Positions 52,760-64,000 of a stretch of DNA of 64,000 bases are shown one piece after another. Every line of letters begins with the position of its first letter. Position 1 is the first letter of the stretch. Origin of the DNA: Alphaproteobacteria bacterium (GTDB taxonomy: Bacteria > Pseudomonadota > Alphaproteobacteria > Bin95); assembly GCA_965205265.1 (NCBI GenBank), contig CBDBGH010000003.1, forward strand, positions 4,640,001-4,704,000. Reading direction: 5' to 3'. Under the pieces are notes generated by a model. It made no database searches. It saw nothing but the letters and a program-made list of their open reading frames with translations, and had not been told where the DNA came from. The position numbers and the translations under genes are program-made.

Positions 52760-53751
52760 GCGGGCACCCATTGGCCCCGCATCTGGCAGACTTCTTCCAT
52801 CATCGCCTGAACGGGCAACTCAACGCCAGCGAACATACGGTGAAGAGCTACCGGGACGCCATGAAGCTACTGCTGACCTTCGCTCAGAAGCAGCTGGGCC
52901 GCGAGCCGATGCGGCTGGAAGTCGAGGACATCGATGCCGATCTCGTCTGCCGGTTTCTGGACCATCTCGAGACGGACCGGAAGAACAGCATCGCCAGCCG
53001 AAACATCCGGTTGGCCGCCATCCGCTCCTTTTTCACGCATGTCTCCCGCTGCGAGCCAGCCCTGCTCGATCACTGTCGGAAGGTGGGCTTGCTGCCCGGC
53101 AAGCGGCAGCGCAAGCCGACGGTCCAGCATCTCGACGAGGCCGAGATCCAGGCCCTGCTCGATGCCCCGAACCTCGATACCCGCACGGGCCGGCGGGACC
53201 GGGCGATCCTGCTGCTGCTGGTACAGACCGGACTGCGGGTCGGTGAGCTGATCAATCTTGACCTCGGCAACATCAGCCTCCAGGGTCAGGCCAGTGTCTT
53301 CTGCCTCGGCAAGGGACGCAGGGAACGCTCGACCCCGCTCCGGCAGGATACCGTGCAGGTGCTCAGCGAGTGGATGGAGGAACGGGCCGCCGGCGCCGGC
53401 GACCCGCTGTTCGTGAGCAACCGGAATCGGCGACTCAGCCCCGACAGTGTCCAGCAACTGGTGCGCCGGCATGTCGAACGGGCGGCCCGACAGTGCCCGT
53501 CACTATCGGCCAGGCGGATCACTCCGCACAGCTTGCGACACACCGCAGCCATGCAGCTTCTGCGTCATGGCCGGTCAATCACCGTTATCGCCTTGTGGTT
53601 GGGACACGAATCGACCATGACGACGATGAAATACCTGCATGCGGATCAGAGGATCAAGCAGGAGGCCATGGAACTGACGCGGCCAGCGGACGTCCCACCG
53701 GGGTGCTACCAGCCAACTGACGAGGTGATGGCCATGCTTAACGCCCTGTGA
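52756..53751 (+). CDS. RIT tyrosine recombinase C
   Basis: TGLRVGEL, GKGRRER, HSLRHTAAM, LWLGHES, KYLHAD. Confidence 0.92.
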   Translation: MSGHPLAPHLADFFHHRLNGQLNASEHTVKSYRDAMKLLLTFAQKQLGREPMRLEVEDIDADLVCRFLDHLETDRKNSIASRNIRLAAIRSFFTHVSRCEPALLDHCRKVGLLPGKRQRKPTVQHLDEAEIQALLDAPNLDTRTGRRDRAILLLLVQTGLRVGELINLDLGNISLQGQASVFCLGKGRRERSTPLRQDTVQVLSEWMEERAAGAGDPLFVSNRNRRLSPDSVQQLVRRHVERAARQCPSLSARRITPHSLRHTAAMQLLRHGRSITVIALWLGHESTMTTMKYLHADQRIKQEAMELTRPADVPPGCYQPTDEVMAMLNAL

Positions 53752-54164
53752 AGCCACCGATTAATGCCGCGTTTTCCGGACCCGAAACCCAAGTGCAGCA
53801 AGGGGCTGACACCGGAAACGCGGCATTAAAATTTTTGCGGCATTGGAACATTTATGCCGAATTCGGCATAAATGTTCCAATAATGCGTACACCGTGGCCG
53901 AGGCGCCGTCCTTCATCCGCACCCGGAAGATGGCGTCCGCCTGCGTGGCCCGGCCGTCGCCGTCGATGGCGGTGCCCTCGATGTGTTCGGGCGCATGGTC
54001 GGGGTCGAGCCGTTCGCGGACCTCGGGCGGCAGGTCGTCGCGAAGCAGGGCCGCGGCGCGTCCGGGATCGGAGACGAGCTGGCGGAACAGGGCGTCGTGC
54101 CGGGCCGGGGGCAGGGGCATGCGGGGTCTCCAGACGGTCTCAGGTTGCGGCGGCGACCTGTGCA

Positions 54165-55460
54165 CTACGGCAGAGAGTGCCCGTGACATGGCTCCCGGGC
54201 AACACGGGAATCGCCTGCGGTCGGTGCCGCCGGGGCCATCAGGGCCTCGATCCGGTCGGCGATCCGTTGGGCCGGCTCGCGCAACTGGGCGAGGGTCCAG
54301 TCGGCGGCATAGCCCTCGGTCACGTCGTTGGGCCGGGCATGGTTGACCAGTCGCTTGGTCAGCGAGGGCGGCAGCATCAGCTCGCGCTCGGCGACGGTGA
54401 TGAAGCAGTTGCGCAGCCCGTGAAACCAGAACTTCGCCCCGCCGGCCTTGCCGATGCGGGTGTAGAGATGGTGCGGATCCTGCACATGGCCGGTCGCGCT
54501 TGTGGGCGACGGGAACACCCACTCCCGAACCCAGTCGGGCAGGTCTGCGGACGCCGCCCGGCGCCGTTCGAGAATAGCCGCGAGCTGCCGGGTGACGGGA
54601 AGCTCCAGCGGAACGCCGGTCTTGGTCTCCTCGACCCGGAAGGCGAGGGCCTCGCTGTCGATCCGCTCCCAGCGCAGGGTCAACACCTCCTCGCGGCGCA
54701 TGCCGGTGTAGAGCCCGAACCAGAGCGCGTCGCGGATCGCCGGGTTGTGGACCTCGACCTCGATGCCCCGGCGCCAGCACGGCAGCACTTCCGAAGGCGC
54801 CGAGATCTTGCGCCGCGCCTTGCGGTGGAACTTGCCGCCGCCGGCAAGCCAGAGATCGACCGGATTGCGCAGTCCCTCCTGGTCGACGCAGGGCCGGCGA
54901 TAGATCGAGCGCAACAGCGACATCGCCCGGTTGGCCGGCGACCAGCCGTGGTCTGCGGTGATGCGGTTGAAGCGGGCCTCGACGTCCCGGCGGGCGATCA
55001 GGTCGAGGGGACGGGCGAGCCAGTCGCCGAGATAGCGGTTTGCCTCGTAGCGGTAGAGTTCGTCGGTGCGCTTCGACCGCTCGGGATTGGCCTTCATGTA
55101 GTCCTCGAAGGCCTCGCCGAGCGTGGGCATGCGGCGGGCCTCGGCGCGCTCCTCGGCCGGATCGTTGCCGCCGGCAACCTTGCCGAGGATCTCCTGCGCC
55201 TTCCTGCGCGCCTGGTCGACGGTGACCGCGCCGAAGCGGCCGAGCGAGACGCGCTTGTTGGGCGCCTTCCGGCCGCCGTCGCCGACGCGGTAGTTGACGA
55301 TGAAGGTCCGGGTGCCCGCCGGGTGGATGCGGACGCCGAAGCCGGTCAGCCGGTCGTCCCAGGCGATCCACGAGCGCTCGGCAGGCTGGAGCGTCTCCAC
55401 GGAGCGCTTGGTGAGTGTCGTGCGCACCCTGGCGGTGCGTTTTCCGGAAGTCGGTTGCAT
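54165..55460 (-). CDS. Tyrosine integrase with arm-binding (DUF4102-like) N-terminus, next to the tRNA-fMet att site
   Basis: WDDRLTGFGVRI, TGMRREE, TKTG, HGLRNCF, LVNH, TEGY. Confidence 0.9.
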   Translation of the reverse strand: MQPTSGKRTARVRTTLTKRSVETLQPAERSWIAWDDRLTGFGVRIHPAGTRTFIVNYRVGDGGRKAPNKRVSLGRFGAVTVDQARRKAQEILGKVAGGNDPAEERAEARRMPTLGEAFEDYMKANPERSKRTDELYRYEANRYLGDWLARPLDLIARRDVEARFNRITADHGWSPANRAMSLLRSIYRRPCVDQEGLRNPVDLWLAGGGKFHRKARRKISAPSEVLPCWRRGIEVEVHNPAIRDALWFGLYTGMRREEVLTLRWERIDSEALAFRVEETKTGVPLELPVTRQLAAILERRRAASADLPDWVREWVFPSPTSATGHVQDPHHLYTRIGKAGGAKFWFHGLRNCFITVAERELMLPPSLTKRLVNHARPNDVTEGYAADWTLAQLREPAQRIADRIEALMAPAAPTAGDSRVAREPCHGHSLP

Positions 55461-55640
55461 GGGGGGCATCGTGCCACCGCGCAAGCGAAACGTCAACACT
55501 TGCGTCAACACGCGGAATCAACTTCCAGCTGTCGCCATCTGTCAGGGGTCGCGGTTGACAAACCGCCAAAGGCATGCAATACCTTGGTTTATCATACTCC
55601 AGCGCACGTCAGGCGGCGTGATGCGCAAATCTCCGCGAGA

Positions 55641-55685
<45 letters not shown>

Positions 55686-57102
55686 CCGAGACCGACATTC
55701 CCGGCCTGGGCGTGTCGGTTTCTCCTTTCCCGGCCCATTCGAGGATGGTTCCGAGGTCGCCATGGAGTGCGGCGTGCATCTCGCCGCGCTTCGCGCCGGG
55801 GGTGAGCACGATGCGCTCGATCAGCCCCCGGATGGCGGTCGCCGCCGCGCCGCGGTCCTCGGGATGGTCCAGCGCCTCGGCGAGGCGCTCGACCTTGCGG
55901 CGGTAGACGAGGGCGATGTTGGGGTGGATGTCCGGGAGGTCGGCCGGAACGGCGGCGAGGCGTTCGTTCAACGCGTCCTGGCGCGCTTCCAGCTCGCGCA
56001 GCCGGTCCACCATGCCCCGGACATAGCCACCGTCCTCGATGACCGAGATCATGGCGGCGATCTTCCTCTCGATCTCGGCGAGTTCCTTGCGGTCGCTCGC
56101 GCCCGAGGCGCGGCGCTCGCGGTTGAGCCGGTTGGTCTCTTCGGCATATGCCTTCATCGCCTCGGCGGCGGCCTTCGGCGCCATCAGCCGGTCCTTCAGC
56201 CCGGCGAGGACGCGTTCCTCGATCTCTGCGCGGCGGATGCCCCGGCCGTTGGCGCAGGACCCCGTCATGACGTGGCTGGAGCAGCCGTAGCGGTCCTGGC
56301 CGCGCATGGAACAGGGGCCGCCGCAGACGCCGCATTCGAGCAGGCCCGAGAGCAGGTGCCGGGGCCGGTGGGCGCCGTTCAGCCGGTTGGAGCGCGCGCT
56401 TTGCGTGGCCGCGATGACGGTGGCGTATTGCACCGTGATTTCGCCCTGGCGGTCCTTCACCGCCTGCCACAGTTCGTCGTCGACGATGCGGAGCTCGGGA
56501 ACCTCGGCGACGATCCACTCCTCCGGCGGGTTGATGCGCGAGACCCGCCTGCCGGTCTCCGGGTTCTTCATGAAGCGCAGCCGGTTCCACACCAGCCGGC
56601 CGATATAGAGTTCGTTGTTGATGAGGCCGGTGCCGCGCTTCGCATGGCCCCGGACGGTGGAATCGGTCCACAGCCTGCCGGACGGGCCGGGGACGGCCTC
56701 GTCGTTCAGCCGCCGCGCGATCGCGCGCGGGCTCGCGCCGGAGGCGAACTCCCGGAAGATGCGCCGGACGATCTCCGCTTCCGCCTCGTTGATCCGCCGC
56801 TCGCCCCGGATCGGCTCGCCGGCGGCGTCGACCGCCTTCACCACATCGTAGCCGTAGCAGAGCCCGCCGCCCGACTTGCCGGCCTCCACGCGGCCCCGCA
56901 GGCCCCGATGCGTCTTCGCCGCGAGATCCTTCAGGAACAGCGCGTTCATCGTGCCCTTGAACCCGACATGGAGTTCGTCGATCTCGCCCTCCGCCAGCGT
57001 CACCACCGTCACCCCGGCGAAGCGCAGGTGCTTGTAGAGCGTCGCCACGTCCGCCTGGTCGCGGCTCACCCGGTCCAGCGCCTCCGCGACCACGACCTCG
57101 AA

Positions 57103-58439
57103 GGGCCTTACAAAGATGAGTTGACGGCGTCATGCCGCCAGCATCCCTGCGTTTTCACGGATCGCAGGGGTCCGCAAGCCGGAACGCCCCTCCCCGTGCA
57201 GCAGCGCCAGTCCCCGACGCCGGATGTTGCTGCCGGCATTCGCGTCGGCATGGTCCGCATGGCCGCAGGCCGTGCACTGGAATTCGGCCCGCGAACGCCG
57301 CGAGCCGGCATCGACATGGCCGCAGGCGGCGCAGGTCCGGCTGGTATGGGCCGGGTCGACCGCGAGCAGCCGTCCCGCCTTGTAGCCGAACATGAAGCGC
57401 AGTTCCGCCCATCCCGTGGCCAGGATGACGCGGTTGAGCCCGGCCTTCTGCCGGACCCGGGCGCCCGGCTCCTCTGTCGTGCCCCGGGCGCTGCGCGTCA
57501 TGTTCCGGACCCGGAGGTCCTCGACGGCGACGGTATGGGCGGCGTCGGCGACTGTCCGCGAGACATGGTGGCGCCAGTCGCACCGCATCCCGGAAAGGCG
57601 CCGCCTCGTCTTCGCCAGACGGGCGCGGGTGCGCTCCCGGCGCCCGGAGCCGCGCTTCTGGCGCGCCAGACGCCGGGCAAGGCGCTTCGCCCTCGCCTCC
57701 AGCCGCCGCGTATCCGGGGCATGGAACAGGCGGGCTTCCGGCCCCGGACCGCTCGCCGCCACCTGGCCAGCGTTCATGTCCACCCCGATGACGCTGTCGT
57801 CATCCTCGTGGACCGCCGGCGCCGGGACCCGGTAGCAGACCACGGCGTACCACTTGCCGGCCTCGCGCTTCAGCACCGCCGAGACCGGCTCGCCATCCCC
57901 ATGCGGGTTGCCGCCCCGCCGGCGGACCGCAAGCGGGCCGAAACCCGGAAGGCGCAGGCAGGCCGCGCCGGACCCGCAGTCCGCGCCGGGCCGGGCCCGG
58001 TCCTCCAGCCTCACCCCCGAGACGAAGGAGAGGCTGTCGAACCGCCGGCGGGACCGGAACCGGGGAAAACCCGGCTTCTGGCCCGCCTTCACCCGCCGGA
58101 AGAAGCCCTTCATCGCCTCGTCCAGGCGCTTCAGCGTCCCGCGCTGCACGGCGACCGGAACGGCCGCCATCTCGGGGTCCTCCCGGCGGCACACCGTCAG
58201 GCTCTTCGCCTGGTCGATATAGGAGAGCGACCGCCCGGCCAGACGCCAGGCGTCGCAGCGTTCCTGAAGGGCGGCGTTGTACAACTGCCGCTGCGCCTCC
58301 AGAACCCGCTCCAGACGCCGCCAAACGGACCGGCGGCCCGGCAGAAGCCGGAATACCACCTGACGGTGCGTGAAGACCTCGCTCATGCGGCCGAACTGGA
58401 TACGATACACGGCAATGTCAACTTACCTTTGTAAGCCCC
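57103..58439 (-). mobile_element. Non-autonomous TIR/TSD element carrying only tnpB
   Basis: 23-bp TIRs (20/23) at 57103-57125 and 58417-58439; 8-bp TSD ACCTCGAA at 57095-57102 and 58440-58447. Confidence 0.9.
57130..58386 (-). CDS. tnpB: RNA-guided endonuclease TnpB
   Basis: RQLYNAAL, GFPRFR, RuvC-I IGVDMN, RuvC-II VAVEDL, TSRTCAACG...CTACG, RuvC-III ADANAGSNI. Confidence 0.93.
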   Translation of the reverse strand: MSEVFTHRQVVFRLLPGRRSVWRRLERVLEAQRQLYNAALQERCDAWRLAGRSLSYIDQAKSLTVCRREDPEMAAVPVAVQRGTLKRLDEAMKGFFRRVKAGQKPGFPRFRSRRRFDSLSFVSGVRLEDRARPGADCGSGAACLRLPGFGPLAVRRRGGNPHGDGEPVSAVLKREAGKWYAVVCYRVPAPAVHEDDDSVIGVDMNAGQVAASGPGPEARLFHAPDTRRLEARAKRLARRLARQKRGSGRRERTRARLAKTRRRLSGMRCDWRHHVSRTVADAAHTVAVEDLRVRNMTRSARGTTEEPGARVRQKAGLNRVILATGWAELRFMFGYKAGRLLAVDPAHTSRTCAACGHVDAGSRRSRAEFQCTACGHADHADANAGSNIRRRGLALLHGEGRSGLRTPAIRENAGMLAA

Positions 58440-58670
58440 ACCTCGAACATCCCCCGCCGCGCGTCCTCCAGCAGCGCCTGGACGCCGGGGCGCAGGATCA
58501 CGCTGTCGCCCGAGATGGCGGAGTCCCTGTAGGCGCCCGCCACCTTCCAGCCCTCGCGCGCGGCGCGCTCGCGGCAGATGCGGAACTGGTCCTCTATGGA
58601 AGCCGCCCGCTGCTGGTCGGACGAGTAGCGGGCATACAGCGCGCAGCGAAGGGGCATGATGAAGGGTCTC

Positions 58671-58889
58671 CTATCTCTCGCCGGCCTCCCCGGTCGGTGC
58701 ATTGTCGTTGGCCGCGGCGCGCCTGTCGAATTGCTCGCGCGCGATGCGCCGCCCGAGCAGCCAGGCCAGCCTCGCCACGGCGGCATCGACCCGCGCTTCC
58801 GGATCGTCTGTCCTGGCTCCCGGGCCGGGATTGTCGTTCGCCGCCGCGCCGCCCGTGGCGGCAATCCCGCGTTCCCCGCTCTCCGGCAT
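58671..58889 (-). CDS. Small hypothetical protein upstream of the serine recombinase
   Basis: AVARLAWLLGRRIAREQF helix with two AANDN motifs; GAGGGG RBS; co-oriented with the recombinase. Confidence 0.55.
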   Translation of the reverse strand: MPESGERGIAATGGAAANDNPGPGARTDDPEARVDAAVARLAWLLGRRIAREQFDRRAAANDNAPTGEAGER

Positions 58890-59072
58890 CCCCTCGCGCC
58901 TCCCGTAGCACCATGCTTCCGGGAACAGGTCTGGGTCCGCGGTCCGGCCCTGTCAAACCGGTCATGTATGGGAGTTCCCGCATCGAATCATCCCCTTGCG
59001 TGCCCTTGGCCGCCCCTGGCGCGGCATGCCGCGCCAGGGGGATGATCGACAAAAAATCGCCGGCCGCGCGAC

Positions 59073-59480
59073 TCATGATCCTTCCCGATCGAAGAGCGGA
59101 ATACCCATGGCGCGGGCGACGGCGGTCATGCGCTGGTCGTGGCTCGCGAGCGTCACCTCCTGACCGTTCTCGGCCAGATACGCGCACGACGCCAGATGCA
59201 GGGCGTCGAGGGTCCGCAATGTTAGCGGACCGGGGCCGGGAAACGCCTCCAGCGCCCGCGCCAGAACCCGCCGGCTCAGCTCCAGCAGCGCGACCCGCCC
59301 GAGCAGACCGCGGGCCGCCTCGCCATGCGACCCGGCAAGCCCGCGCCGGTGCAGCGCAGTCCATATCTCGTATTCCAGCAGCCGGCTGGAGACCAGGGTC
59401 TCGTCCCACAGCGAGACCGGCGGCTGTTGATCCTCGGTGAGGAGATGCGCAAGCGCGACCGACGTGTCGAGATAGATCAC
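59073..59480 (-). CDS. vapC: PIN-domain (VapC) toxin
   Basis: IYLDTS, LRTLDALHLA, SHDQR; GTGA overlap with the antitoxin. Confidence 0.88.
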   Translation of the reverse strand: MIYLDTSVALAHLLTEDQQPPVSLWDETLVSSRLLEYEIWTALHRRGLAGSHGEAARGLLGRVALLELSRRVLARALEAFPGPGPLTLRTLDALHLASCAYLAENGQEVTLASHDQRMTAVARAMGIPLFDREGS

Positions 59481-59770
59481 CGGTCGCGCCGGCTTTCGTC
59501 CAGCTCCGCCAGAACATCGTCCAACATGGCGACCGGCGGCGGCTTCGGCGGCATCCCCGAGCCGGACAGCGCCGGCGGCGCGAGAACGCCGGAGCGCACC
59601 GCGTCGGCCAGGAAGGCGTCGGCGAGGATCGGGCTCCGGGATTCCCTCAGCGGGCCGAGTTCCGCCACGACCTGATCGCGGTCGGTCACGAGAATCGTTT
59701 CGCCGGACGCCGCAAGCCGGACATATTCGCTCAGCTTGCTGTTCAGAACCTTGATCCCGACCGATCTCAT
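59477..59770 (-). CDS. Phd/YefM-family antitoxin
   Basis: MRSVGIKVLNSKLSEYVRLAASGETILVTDRDQVVAEL. Confidence 0.85.
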   Translation of the reverse strand: MRSVGIKVLNSKLSEYVRLAASGETILVTDRDQVVAELGPLRESRSPILADAFLADAVRSGVLAPPALSGSGMPPKPPPVAMLDDVLAELDESRRDR

Positions 59771-59778
59771 GCGCTCAA

Positions 59779-59798
59779 GGTAGCGACCGATCGCTACC
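59779..59798. promoter_or_regulatory. Putative TA autoregulatory operator
   Basis: Inverted repeat GGTAGCGA-CCGA-TCGCTACC 8 nt upstream of the antitoxin ATG. Confidence 0.6.
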
Positions 59799-59874
59799 GC
59801 GTCAACCGCCAGCGCCACCGCCAGCGCCAGCGGCCCTGCCCGTCAGGTGTCCCCGGACCTCCTGCGCCGGCCGT

Positions 59875-60630
59875 CTACCGGTAGATGTCGAACGGAAAAT
59901 ACCGGGCGCTGATCCTGCGGTAGGCGCCGTCGGCGAGGATCGACCGAAGCGCCCGGTTCAGCCGGTTGCGAAGCGCGTCGTCTTCCTTGCGCACCGCGAT
60001 GCCGATGCCCTCGTCGAGACGGTAGCCGTCGCCTACGAAAGCGAAGCCGGCGCCCTCGGGGGTCCCGAGCCAGCTCCAGAAGCCGAGGCTGTCGCCGAAC
60101 ACCGCATCCAGCCGGCCCTCGACAAGACCCCGCATGAGCGCGTCCTGACCGGCGTAGAGCCGGATGGCGGCAACTTTCGACAGGTTGGCGTCCAGCCAGT
60201 CCGAAGCGACGGTGGCGCGCGCCGCGCCGACGGTCCGGCCCGCCGGCGCGGCGGGATCGAAACCGGAGCCCTTGCGGGCCACGAAGCGGACGACGTTGCT
60301 GTAGTAGCGGTCGGTGAAAGCCACCAGACGCCGGCGCCTGTCGGTGATCGACATGCTGGAGACGATGGCGTCGAAACGGCCGGCGCGCAGGGCCGGGATC
60401 AGCTCTTCCCAGTCCCGGCGGACGAAGGCGCATTGGGTTTCCAGACGCGCGCAGAGCGCACGGGCGATGTCGATGTCGAAGCCGACGAGCCGGCCCGCAT
60501 CGTCGACCTCGCTGAACGGCGGGTAGGTGGGGTCGACGCCGATGCGCAGCCTCTCCGGCGCCGCGTCACCGCCGAACGCGGGTGCACAGGACAGCAGGGC
60601 AAGGAGGAATGCTGCGACCAGCCTCTTCAT
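59875..60630 (-). CDS. Polar amino-acid ABC transporter substrate-binding protein (HisJ/ArgT-like), orphan
   Basis: Signal peptide, YPPF, GFDIDIA, SMSITDRR, FTDRYY. Confidence 0.88.
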   Translation of the reverse strand: MKRLVAAFLLALLSCAPAFGGDAAPERLRIGVDPTYPPFSEVDDAGRLVGFDIDIARALCARLETQCAFVRRDWEELIPALRAGRFDAIVSSMSITDRRRRLVAFTDRYYSNVVRFVARKGSGFDPAAPAGRTVGAARATVASDWLDANLSKVAAIRLYAGQDALMRGLVEGRLDAVFGDSLGFWSWLGTPEGAGFAFVGDGYRLDEGIGIAVRKEDDALRNRLNRALRSILADGAYRRISARYFPFDIYR

Positions 60631-60855: not shown

Positions 60856-61725
60856 ATGCTCGTTCCTGTGCCCGACCCCTCGCCCGTGGACCGCCCAGAG
60901 GCGGATCGCCAGCCGGATCTGTTCGACGGCCGCGGCCGGGCCGATGTCCGCAGCCGGCGGGAACATCCGGTCCGGCCGGTGCTACCCGCGCCGGCCTCGC
61001 TCGGCGACGACGAACTGGCCGGACGGTTTGCGGAGGCGGGGCCGTCGGAGATCGACGCGCTGTGCGCAAAGGTCGTCGCGCGGCCGCTGCCGGCGGCGGT
61101 TCCGGCGCTGGAGGCGCTTTGGCGCCGATTTCACGGTTTCGGCATCGATCGGCCGCTGCGGGAACAGTGCGCCGTGCTGGAGACGCTGGCGCGGCTGGAT
61201 GGTTCCGGGACGCGGGCCGCGCTGAGGCGGATCGTTCTTTCAGCGGGCCTGCCTACCTCGCTGCTGCCAATTGCGCTGCGGTCCGCCGCCGATGCCGGGG
61301 TGGTCCTTCCTGCCGCCTTCGTCGCGGATTTTCTCGAACATGACGACCCGGCGTTGCGCCGGGCGGCCTTCGACCTTGCGCCCGGAGCGAAGATACCGGC
61401 GCCCCGGCTCCGGGAGGGGCTGTCCGACCGGGATCTTCCGATCCGCCTAGCGGCGGCGGCCGCGCTGGCGCATCGGGGCGATGCCTCGGGCCGGGACGTG
61501 CTGATCGCCGAATTGACGGTCGCGCCCTCGACCGCGCTCGTCGAGGCGCTGGGCGCGCTCGGCGACGACGCGGCGATCGTGTCTCTCGGGCGCTGCGCGA
61601 TGCGCCGCCCGGAATTCGCGCCAGTCGCGGTCGCCGTCCTGCGCGACATGGGCAATCCGCGTGCCGACAGGCTTGCCGCCCGCCTGGAGGCGGGGCCTGC
61701 TGGACCGGGAGAAGGGGCGGGATGA
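60856..61725 (+). CDS. HEAT/PBS-lyase-like repeat protein
   Basis: LEHDDPALRRAA, LSDRDLPIRLAAAAALA, ALGALGDDAAIVSL; start uncertain. Confidence 0.6.
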   Translation: MLVPVPDPSPVDRPEADRQPDLFDGRGRADVRSRREHPVRPVLPAPASLGDDELAGRFAEAGPSEIDALCAKVVARPLPAAVPALEALWRRFHGFGIDRPLREQCAVLETLARLDGSGTRAALRRIVLSAGLPTSLLPIALRSAADAGVVLPAAFVADFLEHDDPALRRAAFDLAPGAKIPAPRLREGLSDRDLPIRLAAAAALAHRGDASGRDVLIAELTVAPSTALVEALGALGDDAAIVSLGRCAMRRPEFAPVAVAVLRDMGNPRADRLAARLEAGPAGPGEGAG

Positions 61726-64000
61726 CGGCCGGCCGGCCGGCTCCGGATTCGTCCGCGCAGCACGACCTGCCTGGCATGGCGGGCGGCGGCGGGAGTGTCC
61801 CGACCGGCCGCGACGAGGCCGATGAGGCCGCACGGATTCGCGTCCGGCTTGCCGGCCTTGCCAAGGAGCGGGCGTCCCTTGAGACCCGGCTGGCGGAACT
61901 GGAACGGGCCCGCCCGGCCGTGCCGTACCGCGATCCGGCCGGGATGCCGGTGACGGACCGCTCGCCTCCGGATATGAAGATCGCGCTGTTCCGCGCGCTG
62001 TTTGCCGGCCGGGAGGACGTGTTCCCGCGGCGCTGGGAGAATGCCCGGACGGGCAAGGCCGGCTACGCGCCGGCCTGCGCCAACGAGTGGAAGCCGGGCT
62101 TGTGCGCCAAGCCGCGCGTGCGTTGCGGCGCCTGCCCCAACCGGGCCTTCCTGCCGGTGACCGACGCGGAAATCGCCGCCCACCTGCGCGGCCGCCATAC
62201 CGTCGGCGTCTATCCCCTGCTTCCGGACGGGACCTGCCGGTTCCTCGCGGCCGACTTCGACAAGGCGGCGTGGCGCCGCGACGCCGGGGCCTTCCTGGAC
62301 GCCTGCCGGTCAAAGGGGGTGCCGGCGGCGCTGGAGCGTTCGCGTTCGGGCCATGGCGGCCATGTCTGGCTCTTCTTCGCCGAACCGGTGTCCGCGGCGC
62401 TGGCGCGGCGGCTGGGCTCGCATCTGCTGACCGAGGCGATGGCACGCCATCCGGACATCGGGTTCGGTTCCTACGACCGGTTCTTCCCGAGCCAGGACAC
62501 GGTGCCCGAGGGCGGGTTCGGCAACCTGATCGCGCTGCCCCTCCAGGGCCGGCCGCGCGCGGACGGCAACAGCGTGTTCCTCGACGGGAACCTCGAACCC
62601 CATGCCGACCAGTGGGCGTATCTGTCGTCGCTGCGGCGCCTGCCGGAGGCAGAAGCGGAAGCGATCGTCGGCGAGGCCGCCCTTCGGGGCCGGATCGTCG
62701 GCCTGCGCCTCCCGCTGGAAGACCCCGAAACGGACGGTGGCGAAGAGCCTTGGGCCGCGCCGCCGTCGCGACGCCGAGCCCTGCCGCCCCTCTCCGGACC
62801 GCTGCCGGAGCGGATCGGGGCCGTGCTGGCGGACCGGCTTTACGTTCCGCGCGCCGGCCTGCCGCCGGGCCTGGTCGACCGCCTGGTGCGTCTGGCTGCG
62901 TTCCGGAACCCGGCCTTCCATGCCGCCCAGGCGATGCGGCGGTCGACTTGGGGCATTCCGCGCATCGTCGCCTGCGCCGAACTGCTCCCGAACCACGTGG
63001 CCCTGCCGCGCGGCTGCCGCGACGAGATGGGGTCGATGCTGGCGGAACACGGTATTGCGCTCGATGTCCGCGACGAGCGCAATCCGGGCCGACCGGTCGA
63101 GCCCGCCTTTCTGGGCGCGTTGACCCCCGAGCAGAAATCCGCCGCCGACGCGCTGCTGGCGCACGAGACCGGCGTGCTCGCGGCGGCGACCGGCTTCGGC
63201 AAGACGGTGGTCGCGGCCTCGGTCATCGCCGCGCGCGGGACGAACACGCTTGTCCTCGTTCACCGCCGCCAGCTGATGGACCAGTGGCTCGCCCGGCTCG
63301 GGGCGTTCCTTGACCTGCCCGCCTCCGCCCTCGGGCGGATCGGCGGCGGGACGCGCCGGCCGAGCGGCATGGTCGACGTCGCGGTGATCCAGAGCCTGGT
63401 GCGCAGGGGCGAGGTCGACGACATCGTGGCCGGCTACGGGCATCTCGTGATCGACGAGTGCCACCATCTGCCGGCAGTCAGCTTCGAGACGGTGGCGAGC
63501 CGCGCGAAGGCGAAATACGTGCTCGGGCTGTCGGCCACCGTGACCCGCCGGGACGGGCACCATCCGATCGTGTTCATGCAGTGCGGTTCGGTCCGGTATC
63601 GCACGCAGGCGAAGGCGGAGGCCCGGCGGCGCCCGTTCCGGCATCGCGCGGTGCTGCACGGCACGGCCTTCCGGCTGCCGGAGGACATGGGCGGGAAGCG
63701 CCCGGCGATCCAGCGGCTCTACGGGCTGCTGGCGGCGGACGGGGCACGCAACGACCTGATATTCGATGGCGTGCTGGCGGCGTTGGAGGCCGGGCGCTCG
63801 CCCATGGTGCTGACCGAGCGCCGCGACCACGCGGAACATCTCGCCGGCCGGCTGGAGGGCTTCGCCCGCAACGTCGTGCTGCTCAGGGGCGGGCTCGGCG
63901 TGCGCCGGCGGCGCGAGACCGCGGAGCGGCTCGACGCCATTGCCGACGGCGAGGAACGGGTGCTGGTCGCCGTCGGACGCTATGTCGGGGAGGGGTTCGA
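61722..64000 (+). CDS. AEP-primase-domain (TOTE-like) plus SF2 DEAD/ResIII helicase fusion; runs off the right edge
   Basis: Manual translation from the ATGA overlap: FRALFAGREDV, CANEW...C..C, FLAADFD, ERSRSGHGGHVW, YDRFFPSQD, GNLIALPLQ, AATGFGKT, IDECHH, LSAT. Confidence 0.88.
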   Translation, partial: MTAGRPAPDSSAQHDLPGMAGGGGSVPTGRDEADEAARIRVRLAGLAKERASLETRLAELERARPAVPYRDPAGMPVTDRSPPDMKIALFRALFAGREDVFPRRWENARTGKAGYAPACANEWKPGLCAKPRVRCGACPNRAFLPVTDAEIAAHLRGRHTVGVYPLLPDGTCRFLAADFDKAAWRRDAGAFLDACRSKGVPAALERSRSGHGGHVWLFFAEPVSAALARRLGSHLLTEAMARHPDIGFGSYDRFFPSQDTVPEGGFGNLIALPLQGRPRADGNSVFLDGNLEPHADQWAYLSSLRRLPEAEAEAIVGEAALRGRIVGLRLPLEDPETDGGEEPWAAPPSRRRALPPLSGPLPERIGAVLADRLYVPRAGLPPGLVDRLVRLAAFRNPAFHAAQAMRRSTWGIPRIVACAELLPNHVALPRGCRDEMGSMLAEHGIALDVRDERNPGRPVEPAFLGALTPEQKSAADALLAHETGVLAAATGFGKTVVAASVIAARGTNTLVLVHRRQLMDQWLARLGAFLDLPASALGRIGGGTRRPSGMVDVAVIQSLVRRGEVDDIVAGYGHLVIDECHHLPAVSFETVASRAKAKYVLGLSATVTRRDGHHPIVFMQCGSVRYRTQAKAEARRRPFRHRAVLHGTAFRLPEDMGGKRPAIQRLYGLLAADGARNDLIFDGVLAALEAGRSPMVLTERRDHAEHLAGRLEGFARNVVLLRGGLGVRRRRETAERLDAIADGEERVLVAVGRYVGEGF

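Follow-up and report, generated by a model that had tools for sequence, protein, structure and literature searches.

We describe a TnpB-encoding unit that, with a probability we put at roughly 85%, belongs to the transposable units of the IS1595 (DDE) type and is non-autonomous, with tnpB and a guide-RNA scaffold as its only cargo. The unit covers positions 57103 to 58439 (1337 bp; minus strand, following the orientation of tnpB) of the window, the 64,000-nucleotide stretch of alphaproteobacterial DNA that was analyzed, and consists, in order, of a left terminal inverted repeat (TIR), tnpB, an omegaRNA-like region and a right TIR. Six of the seven copies of the unit in the genome are flanked by perfect 8-bp duplications, the uninterrupted target was found in a relative, and the same genome carries an autonomous element with matching ends that encodes an IS1595-family DDE transposase.

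The unit and its insertion site

The TIRs of the unit are 23 nt long and 87% complementary (20/23). The left-end TIR, 5' of tnpB, lies at positions 58417 to 58439 (minus strand; GGGGCTTACAAAGGTAAGTTGAC reading inward), and the right-end TIR, 3' of tnpB, at positions 57103 to 57125 (minus strand; GGGCCTTACAAAGATGAGTTGAC reading inward). The flanking target-site duplication is exact, and its right-end copy (57095 to 57102) and left-end copy (58440 to 58447) both read ACCTCGAA on the plus strand. The sole gene inside the unit is tnpB (57130 to 58386, minus strand), whose ATG at 58386 is separated from the left TIR by 30 nt and whose stop codon (57130-57132) is separated from the right TIR by 4 nt. 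An earlier note on this DNA had reported a 1337-bp insert with these TIRs, this perfect duplication, this single gene and these two spacings; all of its coordinates and sequences are present in the window, and each of these observations held. The insert with its TIRs and duplication is confirmed as real and not a product of chance.

No sigma-70-like promoter was found within the unit. The one terminator-like hairpin found there, against 0.5 expected, coincides with the stop-codon hairpin. A tRNA scan of window positions 53000-60000 found none, and a protein-level search of a plasmid collection at E ≤ 1e-40 returned no match.

The insertion target is a gene for a large, phage-type serine recombinase, which is not part of the unit. 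Its N-terminal part (58440 to 58657, minus strand) matched positions 2-63 of the Pfam Resolvase profile (PF00239), and its C-terminal part (55642 to 57093, minus strand) matched positions 68-144 of the same profile together with Recombinase and Zn_ribbon_recom. As the earlier note had claimed, the recombinase is split by the insert: when the insert and one duplicate are taken out, the frame is restored (...MFEV|VVAEALDRVSRD). The uninterrupted allele was found in a relative, in which a contig of run X5 (~93% identical) joins 57094 to 58440 and so represents the empty site; at the joint 1345 bases (1337 + 8) are skipped and 8 letters fit both sides. A shorter joint in run X9 skips the same 1345 bases. 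Further contigs of run X5 stop at 57103 and 58439, with different flanks beyond.

The TnpB protein and the structured right end

The TnpB protein has 418 amino acids from the ATG, or 426 if translation starts at the alternative GTG at 58410. It matched the Pfam profiles OrfB_IS605 (PF01385; E 6.7e-14) and Cas12f1-like_TNB, a zinc ribbon (PF07282; E 9.6e-14), and it was aligned over its full length (E 2.9e-25) with the TnpB of ISDra2 (8h1j), the nearest solved relative, with the RuvC residues D, E and D and both CxxC pairs in register. The three RuvC acidic residues and the zinc ribbon that the earlier note had read from the translation are therefore borne out by both the Pfam matches and the ISDra2 alignment. 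Among 20 TnpB relatives of 49-75% identity, D211, E297 and the zinc ribbon show no variation, and conservation of D389 is at least 90%. The TnpB of the unit keeps an intact RuvC D-E-D site and may cleave DNA in a guide- and TAM-dependent manner.

A conserved structured RNA, the putative omegaRNA scaffold, occupies positions 57103 to 57232 (minus strand), an interval that takes in the 3' end of tnpB and extends as far as the final base of the unit. In an RNAalifold analysis of 18 diverged right ends, 22 pairs were found, 12 of them with compensatory changes, and 94.9% of the pairing cells were paired, compared to 81.8% in shuffles; on four of five measures none of the 500 shuffles reached the observed value, while slid controls gave 29-45%. 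The structure comprises several covarying helices over about 110 nt, its G-U pairs make it specific to the sense strand, and the inner half of the right TIR pairs with an upstream RNA segment. A pseudoknot between the loop of the first hairpin and the last 6 nt found no support from covariation, given that its positions were 87% paired with one compensatory change, that 51 of 500 shuffles matched this and that a slide of -1 gave 86%. By E-value, an Rfam scan of positions 56900-58650 yielded sub-threshold chance matches only. Among the public runs listed as containing the sequence, none is of RNA. We read the covarying 3' structure as an omegaRNA scaffold that reaches the right end of the unit and is predicted to be expressed.

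In the mechanism that we propose, the last ~110 nt, comprising the 3' end of tnpB and the right TIR, fold with a final helix that uses the inner half of the TIR. The scaffold would then seem to end at the unit boundary, and the guide would consequently come from the flank, that is, from the duplication and the DNA downstream of it, as it also does in IS605 elements. The RNA would be expressed from the unit, and TnpB, guided by the flank, would cut the unoccupied allele and so favor retention or homing. It should be noted that cut-and-paste movement by a DDE transposase already leaves a double-strand break, so that the gain from a homing nuclease is unclear, a doubt also voiced in a 2026 review (PMC13565253).

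That TnpB is instead passive or exapted, with no flank-guided nuclease role, and that the 3' structure serves transposase binding, termination or the mRNA, is unlikely but by no means negligible. DDE elements move without obvious need for a homing nuclease, as the review points out (PMC13565253), and the final hairpin looks like an intrinsic terminator. Against this stand the conservation of the catalytic residues and zinc ribbon among the 20 relatives, the multi-helix covarying structure with its sense-strand G-U pairs, which is as expected of an omegaRNA, and the position of the tnpB stop codon, which abuts the right repeat across the whole clade of related TnpBs.

Copies, MITEs and the candidate transposase

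The genome contains seven full-length, near-identical copies of the unit, all with exact boundaries (1-1337), and these hold its only TnpB-type genes. The 8-bp duplications of six copies are perfect and each is different, while one copy has none; the variety of duplications that the earlier note had expected of other copies was thus found. A genome-wide approximate-match search for the ends of the unit identified 26 paired units, 20 with 8-bp duplications. Seven of them are the TnpB units and 17 are small and MITE-like, of which 12 have duplications; the other two are a 2840-bp element and a MITE with an IS66-like insert. The last of these, an end pair 2780 bp long, was considered as a second autonomous element and rejected because of that insert.

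The only autonomous element among these matches is the 2840-bp element at C3:1919671-1922510, which encodes an IS1595-family transposase (DDE_Tnp_IS1595, E 1.3e-41, with Zn_ribbon_IS1595). Its own arms match at 23/23 positions, it is flanked by an 8-bp duplication, and its ends match the left-end and right-end TIRs of the unit at 19/23 and 20/23 positions, respectively; it is the kind of autonomous partner with like ends that the earlier note had proposed to look for. Since its similarity to the unit is confined to the 23-bp repeats, the pairing of this transposase with the unit rests on 19-20/23 identity and on equal duplication length. For the same reason neither a MITE nor the 2840-bp element was accepted as the parent of the unit, as only the inverted repeats are similar. 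Other IS1595-family transposases in the genome are about 54-57% identical and have different ends, the repeat search on transposase flanks being noisy and usable for three elements only; any of these transposases may also have moved the unit.

We propose that an IS1595-family DDE transposase encoded elsewhere in the genome, for which the single 2840-bp element is the best candidate source, would bind both 23-bp TIRs and insert the unit, probably by cut-and-paste, through an 8-bp staggered cut at A/T-rich G|WWWNNWWW sites; such a cut would produce the 8-bp duplication. Given that the unit holds tnpB only, with no DDE_Tnp_IS1595 transposase of its own, and that the transposase is encoded elsewhere, we class it as IS1595-dependent and do not count it among the true IS1595 insertion sequences. 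It differs from IS607 elements in having no second gene and in having TIRs and duplications, and from IS200/IS605 elements in having TIRs and variable 8-bp duplications in a genome (98.98% complete) without a match to Y1_Tnp (PF01797), a profile that was found in 6 of 14 reference genomes searched as a control.

Related loci in other genomes

Related loci were collected by an alignment-based search, a single-protein query having given only seven. A solo architecture with inverted ends is common to TnpBs down to 36% identity, in Alphaproteobacteria and Rhodothermales. A strict scan was applied to the 73 related TnpB loci that had sufficient flanking sequence; it detected TIR pairs at 38, delimiting units of 994-1537 bp, of which 17 have perfect 8-bp duplications and five have duplications with one mismatch; most of the 35 loci that failed the strict scan have like ends by eye. 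The homologues thus show inverted ends and duplications and not Y1-type ends, the observation by which the earlier note had proposed that its reading be judged. A tblastn search with the transposase as query gave only one weak match (29% identity, outside the unit) within ±4 kb of any of the related loci. PF12762 was detected in all five other unit-holding genomes and in 1 of 14 controls, and a GGGRATTATA-type start is also present beside IS1595 transposases in four other unit-holding genomes. An IS1595 element without TnpB in one genome (G016) has 8-bp duplications as well.

The association with such ends characterizes an entire TnpB clade. The earlier note had inferred that a TnpB was captured by DDE-type ends and moved in trans: the ends and the movement in trans are supported, whereas a one-off capture is not.

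Neither an 8-bp duplication nor ends beginning with GG are peculiar to IS1595. The ends might accordingly belong to another DDE family, with their likeness to the 2840-bp element, limited to 23 bp, saying nothing about the mover. We consider this improbable, however, because the genome-wide search for the ends yielded, besides TnpB units and MITEs, just one autonomous element, which has an IS1595 transposase, because the GGGRATTATA start is common to the IS1595 elements of other genomes that hold such units, and because the TnpB-less IS1595 in G016 also generates 8-bp duplications.

IS200/IS605 elements use a Y1 HUH transposase and a fixed target of 4-5 nt that adjoins the insertion. That the unit is a tnpB-only element of this family (IS1341 group) which a Y1 TnpA mobilizes in trans in single-stranded form, with incidental ends and duplication, is very improbable: TnpB is the hallmark gene of the family, the ISDra2 protein is the nearest solved relative and a distant homologue (L040; 30% identity) adjoins a Y1_Tnp gene, but the 23-bp inverted repeats, the varied perfect 8-bp duplications of six of seven copies and of 17 related units elsewhere, and the lack of Y1_Tnp matches in a genome searched alongside positive controls all stand against it, as IS200/IS605 transposition makes no duplication according to the review (PMC13565253).

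Comparison with known systems

The IS1595-dependent unit shares with the IS1341 group a single tnpB, non-autonomy and an omegaRNA-like structure from the tnpB 3' end to the element end; members of that group, in contrast, have neither inverted repeats nor duplications and depend on a Y1 TnpA. In IS607, a serine-recombinase TnpA stands beside tnpB, and there are neither inverted repeats nor duplications. The earlier note had taken prokaryotic tnpB to sit normally in IS605 or IS607, a view that has been superseded. Altae-Tran et al. (2023, PNAS; PMC10691335) described six DDE-associated TnpB branches (DDE-1 to DDE-6) with inverted terminal repeats, in which solo TnpBs share ends with transposase-bearing elements and were inferred to move in trans. 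The novelty of the present unit is consequently smaller than the earlier note had claimed. As in those branches, it is a TIR-bounded prokaryotic TnpB whose 3' end lies near the transposon end. It appears to differ from those branches, where at least some members have a DDE transposase gene beside tnpB, in that the transposase never adjoins tnpB in the loci examined here, so that a survey of gene neighborhoods would not flag the clade. The DDE partner families named are IS630 in the main text of that paper (PMC10691335), in which "IS1595" does not occur, and ISL2, IS630 and IS1031 in the review (PMC13565253). We found no description in the literature of a TnpB paired with IS1595; on a comparison that for DDE-1 to DDE-5 covers the main text only, IS1595 appears to be new as a partner family, the principle being known.

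With the IS1595 family, as characterized in the source consulted (PMC8101967), the unit shares GG-starting inverted ends, 8-bp duplications and, through its dependence, a DDE_Tnp_IS1595/Zn-finger transposase, as well as co-resident MITEs. It differs from IS1595 insertion sequences in that a gene for an RNA-guided nuclease takes the place of the transposase gene, and in that its right end also forms part of a structured RNA.

The unit also resembles the Fanzor-bearing cut-and-paste transposons of eukaryotes, which Bao and Jurka reportedly described in 2013, in that a nuclease of the TnpB family lies within inverted repeats that are flanked by duplications. Bases of the inverted repeat are taken into the guide-RNA scaffold of Fanzor, according to Yoon et al. 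(2023; PMC10711439), as they are into the putative scaffold of the unit. Fanzor elements are, however, eukaryotic or viral, encode larger proteins and build short fixed duplications into the scaffold (PMC10711439), whereas the unit has a variable 8-bp duplication and a compact canonical TnpB.

Target-site asymmetry and implications

The accepted role of TnpB is to restore IS605 and IS607 elements after scarless excision. Given that DDE elements leave a break and make duplications, this role is not obviously transferable to the IS1595-dependent unit. Prokaryotic pairings of TnpB with DDE transposases are considered rare (PMC13565253), and the unit is a recently active example, with seven near-identical copies and an empty site. 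A single genome contains the unit together with its MITE relatives and the candidate partner transposase, and the putative guide-RNA scaffold overlaps the predicted transposase-binding site.

At the target sites, a G stands right before the duplication, on the left-end side, in 30 of 32 cases, while the mirror C is found in only 14 of 32. A tentative extension, which we regard as possible but doubtful, would take this one-sided G as the TAM. A large, catalytically intact and always solo TnpB clade of Alphaproteobacteria and Rhodothermales would have come to depend entirely on IS1595-family DDE transposases for its movement, and its omegaRNA would have merged with the transposase-binding TIR, so that one sequence serves both enzymes. 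The unoccupied allele would be cut, while the unit's own right-end junction, with a C at that position, would be spared. If this were true, a cut-and-paste element would gain an RNA-guided homing drive.

The unit makes testable how an omegaRNA deals with a variable 8-bp duplication, what the TAM is and whether a cut-and-paste element benefits from TnpB at all. It also demonstrates that transposase partners acting only in trans can escape gene-neighborhood surveys, and it provides a bacterial counterpart for the entry of Fanzor nucleases into inverted-repeat transposons.

The TnpB Unit and Its Split Target Gene

The insert described in the earlier note is 1337 bp long and occupies positions 57103–58439 of the window, where it lies between two exact copies of the 8-bp target-site duplication ACCTCGAA (57095–57102 and 58440–58447). 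A repeat-pair search found a 23-nt inverted repeat at its termini, with 20 of the 23 positions complementary. The single long ORF with a family match in the insert is tnpB (57130–58386 from the ATG, minus strand), whose start codon is 30 nt from the left inverted repeat (i.e., the end 5' of tnpB) and whose stop codon is 4 nt from the right one. Pfam searches identified OrfB_IS605 and Cas12f1-like TNB zinc ribbon domains in TnpB, and full-length alignment with the structurally solved ISDra2 TnpB brought all three acidic residues of RuvC, as well as both CxxC pairs, into register. The claim that tnpB is the sole gene and that its acidic triad and zinc ribbon are intact is thus borne out. Both flanks were identified by Pfam as halves of one large serine recombinase; once the insert and one of the two 8-mers are removed, the reading frame continues as ...MFEVVVAEALDRVSRD. 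Insert, duplication, inverted ends and split recombinase are all present as had been claimed.

The neighborhood of the unit (54165–55511, 59073–59818 and 61722–63998) resembles a mobile or defence island. Its content includes a tyrosine integrase (Arm-DNA-bind_3 and Phage_integrase), a PIN toxin with a weak match to a Phd-type antitoxin, and a single protein in which an AEP-TOTE conflict-system primase domain is fused to a ResIII/DEAD helicase.

Genomic Copies and the Empty Site

The source assembly (5.70 Mb; 98.98% complete), in which the window corresponds to C3:4640001–4704000, contains seven full-length copies of the unit that are ~100% identical over bases 1–1337, plus one truncated copy. 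Perfect 8-bp duplications, each of different sequence, flank six of the seven full copies, while the copy at C3:4855744–4857080 is without one. The truncated copy (left-end 518 bp; 4849555–4850072) is 5.7 kb from this duplication-less copy, which suggests rearrangement between copies. Six of the seven full copies and the truncated one are clustered within C3:4.69–5.31 Mb.

In the public sequencing run X5, a 960-nt contig that is ~93% identical to the recombinase fuses position 57094 to position 58440. The joint omits 1345 bases (i.e., 1337 + 8), the 8 letters being compatible with either side, and the contig represents a relative in which the site is empty. A shorter joint in run X9 likewise omits 1345 bases. 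Contigs of the unit in X5 break exactly at 57103 and 58439 and then run into other DNA. Thus, the copies with differing duplications and the uninterrupted recombinase for which the earlier note had proposed to search were both found, and the unit is recently active.

IS1595-Type Ends and a Candidate Transposase

According to the literature, inverted repeats and duplications are both lacking from IS200/IS605 and IS607 elements (PMC13565253, PMC6188088). In contrast, the TnpB unit has both, which places it outside either group. No Y1 (IS200-type) transposase was detected in the source genome (98.98% complete), while the same search was positive in six of 14 control genomes. The IS1595 family is characterized, in the part of PMC8101967 cited here, by 8-bp duplications and a transposase with a zinc finger and DDE_Tnp_IS1595, and the ends of its Merlin relatives begin with GG. 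These defining traits match what was found here.

A genome-wide, mismatch-tolerant search with the terminal repeat of the unit revealed 26 paired units with related ends, 20 of them with 8-bp duplications. They comprise the seven TnpB units, which carry the only TnpB-type genes in the genome, 17 small MITE-like units of 192–586 bp (12 with duplications; e.g., C3:42319–42552, 1205672–1205919 and 5413311–5413544, all outside the window), a 2780-bp pair and a 2840-bp element. The 2780-bp pair (C3:2143223–2146002) is a MITE of this family broken by a three-ORF element, which looks IS66-like from its ORF sequences. Several MITEs share one target (TCATGTTT / AAACATGA) and may therefore mark either a repeat that has been duplicated or a hot spot.

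The 2840-bp element (C3:1919671–1922510) has perfect ends (23/23; GGGGATTACAAAGATGACTTGAC) and the duplication TCATGTTT, and it codes for a protein of 332 aa in which DDE_Tnp_IS1595 (E 1.3e-41) and Zn_ribbon_IS1595 were identified. Its ends agree with those of the TnpB unit at 19 of 23 positions on the left and 20 of 23 on the right, so that the autonomous element anticipated by the earlier note has a candidate with near-identical ends and an IS1595-family DDE transposase. No similarity was found outside the repeats between the TnpB unit and the 2840-bp element or the MITEs; the repeats are therefore their sole common part, which fits recognition by a shared transposase. The other IS1595-family transposases of the genome are ~54–57% identical and have different ends. 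One such type, with four copies and a transposase ~57% identical, is likewise ~2840 bp long. Beside its transposase gene the candidate element has extra ORFs; one encodes a putative lipoprotein of 277 aa, whose match to TbpB_B_D is sub-threshold (E 2.6e-4).

Distribution among Relatives

In G016, a genome of the same genus, TnpBs that are 76–78% identical and a decayed one of ~60% identity are found in units of 1317–1351 bp with related ends, and the duplications are perfect in two of three. G016 also has a 1724-bp IS1595 element, the end of which departs from the pattern derived from the units by a single mismatch. A protein database search scored 8000 proteins, 3154 of which were at E <= 1e-30, and the best 120 were 47–100% identical to the query. 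With an alignment of 20 of these as the query, we retrieved 80 loci of 36–75% identity, which come from genome records of Thalassobaculaceae, Paracoccaceae, other Alphaproteobacteria and Rhodothermales. After 10 loci at contig edges were left out of the 83 considered, inverted-repeat pairs of the GGGRMTTAYA type, spanning 994–1537 bp, were found by a strict scan in 38 of 73 loci, with 17 perfect duplications and five with one mismatch. By eye only, the same ends, with small indels, can be recognized in most of the 35 loci that did not pass.

Units of 994–1537 bp are too small to hold a transposase as well. Consistently, tblastn with the IS1595 transposase against all loci with ±4 kb of flank gave a single weak match (29% identity), outside the unit. 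PF12762 transposases were found in all five other unit-bearing genomes vs. one of 14 controls, and the ends visible beside those of the unit-bearing genomes begin with GGGRATTATA. Judged from these sequences, the association between TnpB and IS1595-type ends is old and clade-wide.

In some subfamilies (L105, L106, L120, L044 and similar loci), a stretch of 40–60 nt from the right end, with the final tnpB codons, recurs in inverted form within the left end; the inverted repeats therefore far exceed 23 bp and contain the coding sequence for the TnpB C-terminus. Units in Rhodothermales MAGs (L072–L089) are nested among alphaproteobacterial ones in a quick tree, which suggests transfer between phyla.

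The terminal motif was absent from distant TnpBs (30–39% identity), one of which adjoins a Y1 gene. A distant Streptomyces homologue (34% identity; L029, 2319–3668) is directly downstream of a DDE_5 transposase gene and may be another DDE–TnpB pairing. In the quick, midpoint-rooted tree of 66 rows, which left out rows <340 aa (including L035, L037, L039 and L040), a single branch (SH-aLRT 90) split the only four outgroups, all motif-less, from the 62 others, the label of inverted-repeat clade being script-verified in part of these 62.

A Predicted Structured RNA at the Right End

The last 130 nt of the sense strand were aligned for 18 units that are <90% identical to one another. RNAalifold predicted 22 pairs in five helices, and 12 pairs have two-sided compensatory changes in at least one sequence. 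Standard pairs occupy 94.9% of cells vs. 81.8% in shuffles, the observed value was matched by none of 500 shuffles on four of five measures, and pairing falls to 29–45% when partners are slid by 1–3 columns. The last helix is formed between a segment ~35 nt upstream and the right inverted repeat, of which the inner half takes part; two-sided changes occur at two pairs of this helix, in 10 and seven sequences. Given the frequent G-U pairs, the structure is specific to the tnpB-sense strand. A small hairpin, the 3' arm of which extends into the repeat, has the stop codon in its loop. The terminal 6 nt may form a pseudoknot with the loop of the first hairpin (87% paired), but covariation does not support it, and no Rfam family matched this RNA. 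The predicted structure looks like an omegaRNA scaffold that overlaps the 3' end of tnpB. This implies a scaffold that reaches the last base of the unit, so that the guide would come from the flank, which for the copy in the window begins with the duplicated TTCGAGGT.

Target Sites

With a perfect 8-bp duplication beside GG.../...CC ends as the sole criterion, 32 distinct sites were collected (six from the source genome and 26 from relatives). When the sites are oriented by tnpB, 30 of 32 have G immediately ahead of the duplication at the left end (background G 0.30; binomial p 4e-14), whereas just 14 of 32 have C at the mirror position behind it (p 0.18; Fisher p 2.5e-5 for the asymmetry). 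G never occurs among the first three duplicated bases, which are mostly A or T. As a control, we used a TnpB-less 1026-bp IS1595-family element of G016 (L161–L176; ~17 copies, 15 usable), which makes 8-bp duplications and has ends (CCTGCTTATCC...) unlike those of the unit. Its target is strongly palindromic, CA|WWNNNNWW|TG (A in 15/15, T in 13/15). Thus, IS1595 transposases read bases outside the duplication symmetrically, and the one-sided G of the TnpB units needs a cause tied to orientation.

The G may be a target-adjacent motif (TAM) of TnpB; the unit would then escape cleavage at its own right junction, where this position is C, and the empty site would be cleaved. Alternatively, it may follow a consistent difference between the ends, as the left end starts with GGGG and the right with GGGA or GGGC. 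The MITEs of the source genome show, by eye, a hint of G beside their GGGG end, but several of these sites share one target and may not be independent.

Implications

The interpretation of the unit as a TnpB with IS1595-type DDE ends, moved in trans, is supported. The earlier note was right to place TnpB within DDE-type ends, but the principle is not new, as prokaryotic TnpBs able to live in DDE transposons were already described by Altae-Tran et al. (2023; PMC10691335), who named IS630 in the part cited here. ISL2, IS630 and IS1031 are named in the corresponding part of a 2026 review (PMC13565253). IS1595 is absent from the main text of Altae-Tran et al. (2023), whose supplementary tables may already hold the clade under a DDE label, and a full-text literature search found no paper linking TnpB to IS1595. 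The proposed parallel with eukaryotic Fanzors is real; Fanzor guide RNAs were shown in the cited part of Yoon et al. (2023; PMC10711439) to incorporate inverted-repeat bases and the duplication.

We infer which transposase moves the unit, the production of the RNA, and the use of TnpB to an element that makes duplications. The unit is a non-autonomous IS1595-type element whose cargo is a TnpB with an intact catalytic site; it carries an omegaRNA-like scaffold fused to its right inverted repeat, and it belongs to a broad clade of the same design.
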